From Escherichia phage mEpX1: 41,567 bases of DNA. Positions 7,423-13,771 of this stretch are shown piece by piece (position 1 is the stretch's first letter; every line of letters begins with the position of its first letter). The position numbers and the translations under genes are program-made. The notes under the pieces were generated by a model that was given only the letters and a program-made list of their open reading frames with translations, did no database searches and was not told the origin of the DNA. The stretch lies in the sequence record NC_019709.1; one strand, written 5' to 3'.

Positions 7423-7809
7423 ATGTCGCAAACTTTAAAACAATTAGCCATGGCGAAAATGGCTGGCTTTCGCCATAAGACGGTCGTTGTCCCTGAGTGG
7501 GAAGGTGTCAAAGTGGTTCTCCGTGAGCCGTCAGGTGAAGCCTGGCTGCGCTGGCAGGAGGTGGTGAAAGGGGGGGCCGACGATGAAAATGTGTCGGTAT
7601 CGGAAAAGGCGCACCGTAATCTTTGCGCTGACGTGGTGCTCTTCATTGACGTTCTGTGTGACACCGATAAGCAACCGGTATTCAGCGTAGACGAAGAAGA
7701 GCAGGTGCGTGAAATTTACGGGCCCGTGCACTCACGTCTGCTCAAACAGGCGCTTGACCTGATCAACAATGCGGACGAAGCGCGGGAAAAGTCTCAACCC
7801 CCGGCGTAA
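7423..7809 (+). CDS. Tail assembly chaperone (lambda G-like)
   Basis: 128-aa ORF between major tail protein and tape measure; the -1 frame is open from 7758 across its stop. Confidence 0.7.
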   Translation: MSQTLKQLAMAKMAGFRHKTVVVPEWEGVKVVLREPSGEAWLRWQEVVKGGADDENVSVSEKAHRNLCADVVLFIDVLCDTDKQPVFSVDEEEQVREIYGPVHSRLLKQALDLINNADEAREKSQPPA

Positions 7810-8096
7810 AGTTTCTGATGTCGCTTGCGCTCCGGATGGGGCGCACGCTCTCAGAGCTTCGGCAGAATATGACGGCAAGCGAGCTTCTGATGTGGATTGA
7901 GTACGACAGGCAAAGCCCGGTTGGCGATATTCGCGGTGATATCCATGCAGCGCAGATTGTCTCTGCCATCTACGGCTCGCAGGGGGCAAAAGTACCGCTG
8001 GACGATGCGATCCTGCGCTGGGGTGGTGATGAGCAATCAGAACCGAAGGACCCGTTTGCAGGGCTTGAGGCGGCACTTACAGCTGCGACACAATAA
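7758..8096 (+). CDS. T-like extension of tail chaperone, probably made as a G-T fusion by -1 frameshift
   Basis: The -1 frame relative to the G-like ORF is open from 7758 through the 7818-8096 ORF; A-rich gggaaaag (7784-7791) lies ~20 nt before the G stop. Confidence 0.55.
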   Translation, partial: PDQQCGRSAGKVSTPGVKFLMSLALRMGRTLSELRQNMTASELLMWIEYDRQSPVGDIRGDIHAAQIVSAIYGSQGAKVPLDDAILRWGGDEQSEPKDPFAGLEAALTAATQ

Positions 8097-8153
8097 TTGC
8101 TTCACATGCCTTCAATGTAGCGATACGCTCTTTCCTTAAGTAAAGGAGGCGTT

Positions 8154-8342
8154 ATGGAACCACTGGTAGTAGTGTTTGGAATATTCGGCTGGCTGATAAA
8201 TCTAATTGTGATTTTTTATTTATTACGGTTTAGCACAAGGGCAAATGAACAAGTTGAAGCCCTTAAAGAGATAAATAAAAAGCAAGATGCGCAAATAGAT
8301 TTATTAATACAAGTCGCTCACCAAAGAAAAGACAGTTTATAA
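8154..8342 (+). CDS. Small single-pass membrane protein, tail-module moron (HK97 gp15-like position)
   Basis: 62 aa; hydrophobic N-terminal helix then charged helical tail; own SD (aaggagg), lower GC than flanks, terminator downstream; inserted between chaperones and tape measure. Confidence 0.6.
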   Translation: MEPLVVVFGIFGWLINLIVIFYLLRFSTRANEQVEALKEINKKQDAQIDLLIQVAHQRKDSL

Positions 8343-8349
8343 CTCACGA

Positions 8350-8373
8350 CCCGCTATCAAGCGGGTTTTTTTT
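8350..8373 (+). terminator. Intrinsic terminator after moron
   Basis: Stem cccgc/gcggg with tatcaa loop plus T8, followed by ATGGG. Confidence 0.6.
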
Positions 8374-11300
8374 ATGGGTGAAAATATGGCTACGTTGCGC
8401 GAACTGATCATCAAAATATCTGCAAACTCTCAGTCATTCCAGTCTGAAATTTCTCGTGCTTCAAGAATGGGGAATGACTATTACCGGGTAATGCAGACTG
8501 GAGGACGCCAATCGGCCGCAGCTTCGCGTGAAACTCAGCGTGCCTTGGCTGAGGTAACTAGTCAAATAAACACCGCGAAGGCCTCAGCACTGGGAATGGC
8601 TGGTGCATTTGCTGGAGCATTTGCGACTGGTCATCTTATATCGCTGGCCGATGAATGGAGCTCTGTTAATGCCAGGCTAAAGCAGGCTTCCCAGTCGTCA
8701 GATGATTTCACGGAGTCCCAGCGGGCGCTGATGGATATTAGCCAGCGAACCGGAACCGCCTTCTCTGATAATGCGAGTCTTTTTGCGCGTTCAGCCGCTT
8801 CTATGCGTGAATATGGCTACAGTTCAGAAGAGGTTCTGAAGGTAACCGAGGCTATATCAACAGGGCTTAAGCTGTCAGGCGCAAGCGCGTCTGAAGCGAG
8901 TTCGGTAATCACGCAGTTCAGCCAGGCTCTGGCGCAGGGTGTTCTTCGAGGCGAGGAATTTAACTCCGTCAACGAAAACGGTGATCGAGTTATCCGTGCT
9001 CTTGCCGCAGGGATGGGTGTAGCTCGTAAAGATCTGAAGGCAATGGCCGATCAGGGGATGCTAACCGCAGATAAAGTTGTCCCGGCCCTGATAAGTCAAC
9101 TTGGCACTATGCGTGGTGAATTTGAGGCAATGCCGCAGACCGTTTCTGCTGCCACGACGAAAGTCGAAAATGCTTTCATGGCATGGGTAGGTGGCGCTAA
9201 TGAAGCCACTGGTGCGACAAGTACTCTTGTTGCCGTATTGAATACGGTTTCTGACAATATAGACACTGTGGCTACGGCTGCCGGAGCTTTGGCTGCGATA
9301 GGTGGAGCTCGCTATCTTGGAGGGATGTTTGGCGATCTTGGGAACCAGACGGCGCAATTAATAGATGCCAGAAAGAACGAAATTGCGCTCGCAGCTGCAA
9401 GGGCTGAATCTGCTACCCAATCACAACGCAAGGCCGCCGCCGATGCTATTGCTGCTGAGCGAGCTTACCAGCTTGCTCAGTCAGAACTTGTGCTGGCAAA
9501 GAATACTAATGCTGAGGCTACTGCCACTCAAAATGCCATATCCAAGCGCCGGGCAATGATTACAGCAAATGCGGCACTGGTACAGTCAAACAGAGCCGTT
9601 GCAGCCTCTCAGCAGGCACTTAACTCTGCAACATCAGTGCTGGGGCTTGTAAAAACTGGCGCTACGGGTCTTTTGTCGTTAGTTGGTGGTTTGCCAGGAA
9701 TTTTAATGTTGGGTGCTGGGGCGTGGTACACGATGTATCAACGCCAAGAACAAGCCAGGGAATCTGCAATCCAATATGCGGACACAATCGAGCAGGTACG
9801 AGATAATCTGAAATCAATGTCTCAGACGCAGATATCCGCCAACCTTGGACAGGCGAATATTTCACTGGATGCTCAGAATAGTGCGATTGAACAGCAGAAG
9901 CAGAAAGTTGCTGAATTATCCAATCAACTTTATAACGCAAAATTAGCAGCCAATTCTGCTTCAGAGGGGACATGGCTGTATAACGATGCGGTTGAGAAAG
10001 CCGCAGACTTTGCTTCAGAACTTGCGGTTGAAGAAGGCCGACTTGAGCAAATGCTCAATAAAAGAAAGCAAACACAACAGTTAATAAACGACATAACTGA
10101 TCAGGCTATAAATAAAACAGTAGAAATGGCTGGCGCCGTAAGTTCTCTTACAGAGATGTATGACCGGCTGAACAAGGTTTCCAGACAGTCTACAGCAGTG
10201 TCCCCACCAAAATATGCAGGACCTGTACTTCCTGCGCTTGATAATAAGCAACAACAAGCTATTGAGAAAGCACAGCGACAGCTTGAGCTATCTGGCCTTC
10301 AGGGTTTGGATAAGGCTCGAAAGCAGGCAGAATTCGATGCATCTGATCTGAACCTTCCAGCTGGTTGGCGTGAGAAATATGTCAGCATGGAAGTTGAGTC
10401 TGCCAGGCAATTACAAGCAATTCGTAACTCAAGCCGCCATAAGGGTGGAAAATCCGAGGCGGAAAAAACAGCTGATACCTATGACAAGCTGATCAAGCAG
10501 CAAAAAGAGCAGATCGCTCTGCAAGGGCAGAATACCGAGCTGGCAAAGGTTAAATATCAGGTAAGCCAGGGTGAGCTTTCTACGCTAAGTCAGGCCCAGA
10601 AAGCCGAAGTTATGCGTAATGCTGCTCTCATCGATCAGGTTAAATTGCGTGAGCAACTGCGAAATTACGAAGCCAACCTTGCTGACAGTAACGCCAGCGC
10701 CCGCGCAGCCAATGAAGCGCAACTGCTGGGCTACGGGCAGGGAACCAGGTTCCGTGAAAGACTTCAGGAGCAGTTCAGTCTGCGTAAGGAGTTTGAGCAG
10801 AAGAATACCGATCTTCTCCGCCAGCGTCAGGCTGGTGAAATCGACGAGACGTTCTATCAGCAGGGGCTGGCACTTAATAAGCGCTACCTCGAAGAGCGCC
10901 TGCGCGACCAGGAGGGATATTACGCAGCTTCTGATGCGCAGCGTGACGACTGGATGACGGGACTGTCTGAGGGTTATGCGAACTGGGTGGATGAAGCGAC
11001 AGATTACTCCTCCATGGCAGCTGACGGGATGAAGCAGGCAATGGGTGGGGCGGTAACTTCGATTACTGACATGCTCAATGGTAACGTCGACAGCTGGAAG
11101 GACTGGGGTGTCAGCGTACTGAAGATCATCCAGAATGTTCTGGTCAATATGGCTGTTGCTAACGGCGTCAGTTCAATTGGTTCTCTCTTCAGCTTTGGCG
11201 CATCTTCCGCCGCTGCCGCCAGTAGCGGTACTGCAATTCAGAACGCTGGCGCGAACTTCACCTTTAACGCGAAGGGTAATGTTTACGACTCTCCGTCCCT

Positions 11301-11652
11301 GAGCGCATACAGCAATGGCGTGTTTCAGACCCCTCAGCTTTTTGCTTTTGCCAAAGGAGCGGGTGTGTTTGCAGAGGCTGGACCTGAAGCCATTATGCCG
11401 CTTACCCGTGCTGCTGATGGTTCGCTTGGCGTTCGGGCTGTTGGCACTGGTGGTGGTCAGGCTGTATCTTCGGCTCCACAGGTTTACATCACCATCGATG
11501 GCAACGGAAATACTTCCACGCAGACTTCACCCGGCCTTGAGCAATTTGGTGCTGATGTCGGTAAATATATTGATCAGCGATATAAGCAGAACATCATGCG
11601 AGATATTCGGCCTGGCGGTGACATCTGGAACGCAATGAAAGGAACCCGATAA
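8374..11652 (+). CDS. Tail tape measure protein
   Basis: 1092-aa ORF, Ala/Gln-rich coiled-coil composition, upstream of M-L-K; alternative start ATG at 8386. Confidence 0.9.
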   Translation: MGENMATLRELIIKISANSQSFQSEISRASRMGNDYYRVMQTGGRQSAAASRETQRALAEVTSQINTAKASALGMAGAFAGAFATGHLISLADEWSSVNARLKQASQSSDDFTESQRALMDISQRTGTAFSDNASLFARSAASMREYGYSSEEVLKVTEAISTGLKLSGASASEASSVITQFSQALAQGVLRGEEFNSVNENGDRVIRALAAGMGVARKDLKAMADQGMLTADKVVPALISQLGTMRGEFEAMPQTVSAATTKVENAFMAWVGGANEATGATSTLVAVLNTVSDNIDTVATAAGALAAIGGARYLGGMFGDLGNQTAQLIDARKNEIALAAARAESATQSQRKAAADAIAAERAYQLAQSELVLAKNTNAEATATQNAISKRRAMITANAALVQSNRAVAASQQALNSATSVLGLVKTGATGLLSLVGGLPGILMLGAGAWYTMYQRQEQARESAIQYADTIEQVRDNLKSMSQTQISANLGQANISLDAQNSAIEQQKQKVAELSNQLYNAKLAANSASEGTWLYNDAVEKAADFASELAVEEGRLEQMLNKRKQTQQLINDITDQAINKTVEMAGAVSSLTEMYDRLNKVSRQSTAVSPPKYAGPVLPALDNKQQQAIEKAQRQLELSGLQGLDKARKQAEFDASDLNLPAGWREKYVSMEVESARQLQAIRNSSRHKGGKSEAEKTADTYDKLIKQQKEQIALQGQNTELAKVKYQVSQGELSTLSQAQKAEVMRNAALIDQVKLREQLRNYEANLADSNASARAANEAQLLGYGQGTRFRERLQEQFSLRKEFEQKNTDLLRQRQAGEIDETFYQQGLALNKRYLEERLRDQEGYYAASDAQRDDWMTGLSEGYANWVDEATDYSSMAADGMKQAMGGAVTSITDMLNGNVDSWKDWGVSVLKIIQNVLVNMAVANGVSSIGSLFSFGASSAAAASSGTAIQNAGANFTFNAKGNVYDSPSLSAYSNGVFQTPQLFAFAKGAGVFAEAGPEAIMPLTRAADGSLGVRAVGTGGGQAVSSAPQVYITIDGNGNTSTQTSPGLEQFGADVGKYIDQRYKQNIMRDIRPGGDIWNAMKGTR

Positions 11653-13507: not shown

Positions 13508-13732
13508 ATGTATACAGTTGGGTTTGGTTGGATCTTCGTCGGTATTTTTATTGGGTTAATTCTCTGGTTTTTCATCAACCGCGCCAGCGTCAGAGCGAAC
13601 AGGCAGGTTGAATTACTTGAGTCTATCGACCAGAAATTATCAAAAATAGTAGATCCAAACTTCGAGGCAAATAACAAAGACCAGTCGAAAGAAAACTACC
13701 TTGAAGAAGCAAGGAAAAAAGCTGGGCTTTGA
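13508..13732 (+). CDS. Small single-pass membrane protein, second tail-module moron (paralog of 8154-8342)
   Basis: 74 aa; shares a TM helix and the core R-[FA]-S-[TV]-R-A-N-x-Q-V-E with the 8154 ORF; own SD (aaggag); terminator downstream; sits between K and I. Confidence 0.55.
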   Translation: MYTVGFGWIFVGIFIGLILWFFINRASVRANRQVELLESIDQKLSKIVDPNFEANNKDQSKENYLEEARKKAGL

Positions 13733-13747
13733 GAGCGTAAATTAACA

Positions 13748-13771
13748 AACCACCTACGGGTGGTTTTTTTA
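13748..13771 (+). terminator. Intrinsic terminator after second moron
   Basis: Stem aaccacc/ggtggtt plus T7, followed by ATGGG. Confidence 0.55.

Follow-up and report, generated by a model that had tools for sequence, protein, structure and literature searches.

The gene between the tail chaperone and tape measure genes of Escherichia phage mEpX1 as a copy of the HK97 gene 15 moron

Introduction

Gene 15 of phage HK97 is a textbook moron, the element behind the coining of the term. It is reportedly treated in Juhala et al. 2000 and in Cumby et al. 2012 (J Bacteriol 194:5012), and the former are said to have characterised morons by extra DNA between genes that are adjacent in relatives, a deviating base composition, and a promoter and terminator of their own.

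The function of the gene was worked out by Cumby et al. in 2012 and 2015, and we give their findings as relayed in the relevant parts of the authors' commentary (PMC3594210) and of citing papers. In these accounts, HK97 gp15 is expressed from the prophage and resides in the inner membrane; it protects the lysogen by preventing HK97 and HK75 from injecting their DNA, independently of immunity (PMC3594210, PMC10883804, PMC12939059), and leaves the surface receptor unblocked (PMC3594210 and later citing papers). Exchanging the tail region for that of HK022 relieves the inhibition (PMC3594210), and hybrid phages map sensitivity to gp15 to the tail tube/tape measure region (PMC3594210, PMC10883804). 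HK97 is further reported to need LamB, the periplasmic chaperone FkpA and the inner-membrane transporter PtsG, and its tape measure protein to interact with PtsG (Cumby et al. 2015, via PMC12939059 and bioRxiv 10.1101/2025.12.01.691526). As for mechanism, the authors of the commentary offer, purely as a proposal, that gp15 keeps the incoming tail from opening a channel for DNA across the membrane (PMC3594210), and a one-line summary in one review has gp15 acting on the complex of tape measure protein and PtsG (PMC12939059).

Several other phage proteins behave comparably. P22 SieA, TP-J34 Ltp and Tuc2009 Sie2009 are, like gp15, prophage-expressed and membrane-associated, and DNA entry is blocked after adsorption; but they have no sequence relationship to gp15, and their sizes, topologies and hosts differ. 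For Ltp, escape is reported to map to the tape measure protein (PMC10883804).

Here, we describe a small membrane-protein gene of Escherichia phage mEpX1, within a window that comprises the whole 41,567-nt stretch analysed (NC_019709.1). A preliminary description of the sequence had likened this gene to the HK97 gene 15 moron, leaving the identity of the two unverified. We compare the protein, its regulatory signals and its insertion site with those of related phages.

Results

The locus and its flanking genes

The head and tail genes of mEpX1 are 97-98% identical to those of HK633, HK75, HK106, mEp234, HK446 and HK97 (megablast, first 25 kb), which places the region under study in the late operon of a temperate siphophage of the HK97 type. 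The genera of the carriers differ, mEpX1 being a Cuauhtlivirus and HK97 a Byrnievirus. In the same search, the GenBank record of mEpX1 from 2025 (PV340543) is 100% identical to the window. The gp15 gene sits where it had first been placed, downstream of the G/T chaperone genes and upstream of the tape measure gene (Table 1). HK97 Gp15 occupies the same slot, next to the same tape measure protein: 1084 of 1089 residues (99.5%) are identical in the two phages.

Two in-frame ATGs, at 8374 and 8386, stand at the start of the tape measure gene (window 8374-8388). The second opens the sequence MATLRELI, a start common to the tape measure homologues of HK97, BP-4795, SW-37 and the Klebsiella phages; PV340543 puts the start at 8374, abutting the T-run of the terminator that precedes it. 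Within the G/T overlap there is a GGGAAAA heptamer at 7784-7790, where the G frame reads CGG GAA AAG. Relative to that frame, the heptamer does not have the X XXY YYZ phasing that is canonical for a -1 frameshift, and re-pairing is perfect only for the A-site lysine codon.

Table 1. Features of the gp15 and gp20 loci of mEpX1, and occupancy of the T/tape measure slot in other phages. Positions refer to the window unless another locus is named.
Feature	Position	Strand	Remarks
Tail assembly chaperone G	7423-7809	+	Upstream flank of gp15
T extension, -1 frame	7758-8096 (open)	+	Upstream flank of gp15
Promoter-like motif	8101..8129	+	TTCACA (8101-8106), 17-nt spacer, TACGCT (8124-8129); read from sequence
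Shine-Dalgarno AAGGAGG	8143-8149	+	4 nt before gp15 ATG
gp15 coding sequence	8154..8342	+	62 aa; ATG to TAA
Intrinsic terminator	8348-8367; T-run (T8) to 8373	+	8-bp GC-rich stem, 4-nt loop; terminator scan
Tape measure protein gene	8386..11652	+	Downstream flank of gp15; conserved start MATLRELI at 8386
gp20-type ORF	13508-13732	+	74 aa, small membrane protein; between tail genes K and I; own ribosome binding site
Terminator after gp20-type ORF	13747-13766	+	
BP-4795, T/tape measure gap	L006 877-927		51-nt spacer, only hairpin and T-run; homologous flanks
HK022, T/tape measure gap			19 nt
Salmonella phage SW-37, T/tape measure slot	L007 349-762		Unrelated 137-aa ORF, lipobox-like LLAGCS
Klebsiella prophage-derived phages, T/tape measure slot	L004 4983-5216 (ST101-KPC2phi6.3)		77-aa YebO-like ORF, 47% identical to gp15, own downstream hairpin terminator

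Identity with HK97 gene 15

The protein encoded by the ORF, MEPLVVVFGIFGWLINLIVIFYLLRFSTRANEQVEALKEINKKQDAQIDLLIQVAHQRKDSL, matches HK97 Gp15 at 61 of its 62 residues (98.4% identity; tblastn, 50,697 phage records), which supplies the alignment that the preliminary description had called for. The two proteins differ at position 14, in the transmembrane helix, where mEpX1 has leucine and HK97 methionine. Among the same records, the copies in HK75, HK446, mEp234, HK544, HK106, HK633 and mEpX1 are all 100% identical to the query. At the DNA level, one base of the 341 between 8060 and 8400 differs from HK97, namely the C/A difference that gives L14 versus M14, and the regulatory DNA is therefore that of HK97: the upstream spacer with its promoter-like motif, the Shine-Dalgarno sequence and the terminator are all identical. 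Existing records label the HK97 gene 'moron product' (AF069529) and the mEpX1 ORF 'Gp15 exclusion protein' (PV340543). Hence gp15 of mEpX1 is a known element that is already annotated, and the window adds nothing new about gp15 itself.

The highest-scoring 19-residue Kyte-Doolittle window of the protein covers residues 4-22 (LVVVFGIFGWLINLIVIFY, mean 2.53). Outside this hydrophobic stretch gp15 is highly charged, with seven K+R and seven D+E, and single-sequence AlphaFold2 models it as a single unbroken helix over residues 2-61 (mean pLDDT 94). The predicted protein has one N-terminal transmembrane helix (approximately residues 4-24) and, after it, a charged helix; hydropathy and model thus agree with the initial reading of the ORF as 62 codons specifying a single N-terminal membrane helix and a charged helical tail. 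Because arginines 25 and 29 directly follow the membrane helix and only three residues precede it, we predict an N-out/C-in topology, which would confine any contact of gp15 with PtsG or the tape measure protein to the bilayer or its cytoplasmic side. The ORF list contains no frame of at least 30 aa on the minus strand of the cassette, and Rfam at gathering thresholds returns no RNA family anywhere in the window.

Composition and signals of the cassette

The cassette (8097-8373) has a GC content of 37%, and the gp15 ORF 33.3%, compared to 54% for G, 58% for the T frame and 51% for the tape measure gene. The terminator hairpin begins 5 nt past the gp15 stop, and its T-run reaches the ATG at 8374. 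It folds with -13 kcal/mol (z = -5.0), a value that none of 200 shuffled sequences equals, and the identical sequence in HK97 is annotated as a putative terminator after gene 15 (AF069529). Low GC relative to the neighbours, a strong Shine-Dalgarno sequence of the gene's own and an intrinsic terminator right after the stop had all been pointed out in the preliminary description, and each holds up here.

The same description had reported a promoter-like TTCACA-N17-TACGCT at 8104-8132. The motif is present, but these coordinates are off by 3 nt (Table 1). Scored by hand, it matches the consensus at 8 of 12 positions (5/6 and 3/6), with no TG extension, and a promoter consensus scan does not list it, since it falls below the threshold. 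The plus strand of the 41.6-kb window has 19 sites of equal quality, or 0.46 per kb; the chance of finding one in the 57-nt spacer is therefore about 3%, which makes the match only mildly unexpected. The motif would imply a transcription start near 8136. We infer that it may act as a promoter only from the published prophage expression of HK97 gp15 (PMC3594210).

Relationship to YebO

Pfam assigns gp15 to the YebO-like family (PF13974) over residues 14-59, with 38.7 bits against a gathering cutoff of 27 and E = 1.2e-9, in agreement with the placement of gp15 homologues in the YebO family by PMC3594210. Among PHROGs, gp15 falls in phrog_5031, which carries no assigned function. PADLOC models match neither gp15 nor the related gp20 described below, and an NCBIfam search yields sub-threshold noise only. 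Compared directly with E. coli K-12 YebO (b1825), gp15 is 38% identical over 48 residues. Both proteins have a single N-terminal transmembrane helix followed by an R-x-S-x-R-x-N-x-Q-x-E-x-L juxtamembrane motif, and their shared part comprises this motif and the last part of the helix; the C-terminus of gp15 has diverged from that of YebO. They also differ in length, 62 aa for gp15 versus 95 aa for YebO, and gp15 is phage-borne.

A second YebO-family gene lies further downstream in mEpX1 (Table 1). Its product is 100% identical to HK022 gp20, annotated as 'moron gene product', and it too belongs to phrog_5031 and matches the Pfam YebO model, with 47.7 bits. With gp15 it shares 43% identity over a stretch of 44 residues; with E. 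coli YebO, to which it is much closer than gp15 is, the figure is 73% over 30 residues, among them IGLILWFFINRAS. Like gp15, gp20 is a single-pass protein whose gene has its own Shine-Dalgarno sequence and terminator inside the tail operon, making the two paralogues in mEpX1; they differ in position, gp20 lying between K and I and gp15 between T and the tape measure gene. Some of the phages that carry the gp20 gene also have gp15, and others lack it. In HK97, codon 32 of this gene is changed from CAG to a TAG amber and the gene is unannotated, whereas the mEpX1 copy is intact. Literature searches on the function of HK022 gp20 and on YebO in phages gave nothing relevant.

The T/tape measure junction in other phages

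A sensitive blastn search with 7818-8700 returns about 140 records at 60-80% identity. Most among the matches listed are Stx and related lambdoid phages, in which the flanks align as two pieces that span some 640 bases, as against 876 in mEpX1. The extra DNA of mEpX1 thus separates genes that are adjacent in BP-4795, the Stx phages and HK022; its base composition deviates from that of its neighbours (33% versus 54-58% GC); and of its own signals, the terminator is clear and the promoter is a weak consensus match that the scan missed. Because most relatives whose chaperone and tape measure genes are homologous lack the insert, the comparison argues that the gp15 gene is a moron and not a tail component.

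The junction is put to more than one use. It is occupied by gp15 in HK97-like coliphages, by a YebO-like gene in about 20 Klebsiella phage records besides ST101-KPC2phi6.3, by a lipoprotein-like gene in SW-37, and by nothing in the Stx phages, and is therefore a recurrent cargo slot. The Klebsiella protein looks mosaic, with a gp15-like middle joined to a C-terminal YLEEARKKAGL that is identical to gp20. The BP-4795 spacer, which lacks a moron, keeps a hairpin and T-run (AAAACCTGCTGTGGCAGGTTTTTTTT), so the presence of a terminator here does not single out the gp15 cassette. Among complete E. coli genomes, the gp15 cassette is found in 6 of 5426, in all cases on the chromosome and under the PGAP name 'YebO family protein'.

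Discussion

Taken together with the published work on HK97, these results make it very probable that the small membrane-protein gene of mEpX1 is a copy of the HK97 gene 15 moron, and that its product is an autonomously and prophage-expressed inner-membrane protein that blocks injection. Three other readings deserve consideration. Given that the ORF sits within the tail operon and is read in the direction of its genes, the product could be a conserved part of the tail, structural or needed for assembly (for example, a membrane-active helper of the tape measure protein), that is made from the late operon only; the YebO-like ORF in the same slot of Klebsiella phages could be seen in this light. 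Yet the slot is empty in BP-4795 (51-nt spacer) and HK022 (19-nt gap); the matches in about 140 records at 60-80% identity are mostly in two pieces, with a total span shorter by about 240 nt; in SW-37 the slot holds an unrelated 137-aa lipoprotein-like ORF; GC content drops 20 points below the flanks; and gene 15 is described as unique to HK97 among related phages (PMC3594210). A role in the tail is thus very improbable. The preliminary description had itself named a conserved structural tail component as the contrary outcome; there is no ORF in the slot of BP-4795, many Stx phages or HK022, and that candidate is excluded.

It has also to be asked whether the gene serves the physiology of the host, in the role of chromosomal YebO, with exclusion being a property of the HK97 protein that the L14 variant does not share. 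The Pfam match, the PGAP name of the prophage copies and the 38% identity to K-12 YebO over 48 residues all lean this way. They have to be set against the single, conservative residue that separates the mEpX1 protein from the HK97 protein that was tested, against the divergence of the C-terminal half from YebO, and against the report that overexpression or deletion of YebO leaves the growth of HK97 unaffected (PMC3594210); we regard such a role as improbable. That no protein is made at all, the ORF having arisen by chance in an AT-rich spacer, gains some plausibility from its 62 codons, short enough to stay open where AT-rich DNA imposes few constraints. A protein of 47% identity in the same slot of Klebsiella phages, the Pfam and PHROG family matches, the strong Shine-Dalgarno sequence and the published phenotype of the near-identical HK97 gene (PMC3594210) leave the chance of this close to nil. 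Conservation and family matches contradict it, and we reject it.

As a copy of the HK97 moron, the low-GC cassette would be a horizontally acquired unit with a weak sigma-70-type promoter in front of its strong ribosome binding site, 62-codon gene and intrinsic terminator. In the lysogen, where the late operon is silent, the cassette would be transcribed autonomously. Its product, which belongs to the YebO family and is predicted to span the inner membrane once, would block DNA injection by superinfecting phages whose tail tube and tape measure module is of the HK97 type. It would probably do so by interfering with the engagement of the tape measure protein with PtsG in the inner membrane. The LamB receptor would be left untouched, and the block would act independently of repressor immunity. 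We expect the L14 variant to behave like HK97 gp15. Since 1084 of the 1089 residues of its tape measure protein are identical to those of HK97, mEpX1 would appear to carry both the blocker and a sensitive tail module, as HK97 does. The preliminary description had presented gp15 of HK97 as a lysogen-expressed inner-membrane protein that blocks DNA entry, and this is how the commentary and later citing papers report it (PMC3594210).

A terminator between T and the tape measure gene raises the matter of tail gene expression in the lytic cycle. Antiterminated late transcription of lambdoid phages is expected to pass terminators. Such transcription would presumably read through the gp15 terminator during lytic growth, so that the tail genes are still expressed. 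AF069529 marks many putative terminators in the late operon of HK97, which fits with read-through of this kind.

Finally, gp15 in this phage mainly validates that a textbook moron, along with its function, can be recognised from raw sequence alone. The useful residue is comparative, and consists of the cargo-slot junction and of gp20, an uncharacterised YebO-family moron that is intact here and dead in HK97. It is conceivable, though we think it rather unlikely, that gp20 is a second injection-blocking exclusion protein of other specificity, directed at another type of tape measure or at another inner-membrane entry factor. Were this so, lysogens of mEpX1 would exclude a wider range of phages than HK97 lysogens do, and the YebO-family morons would constitute a small, diversifying family of entry blockers.
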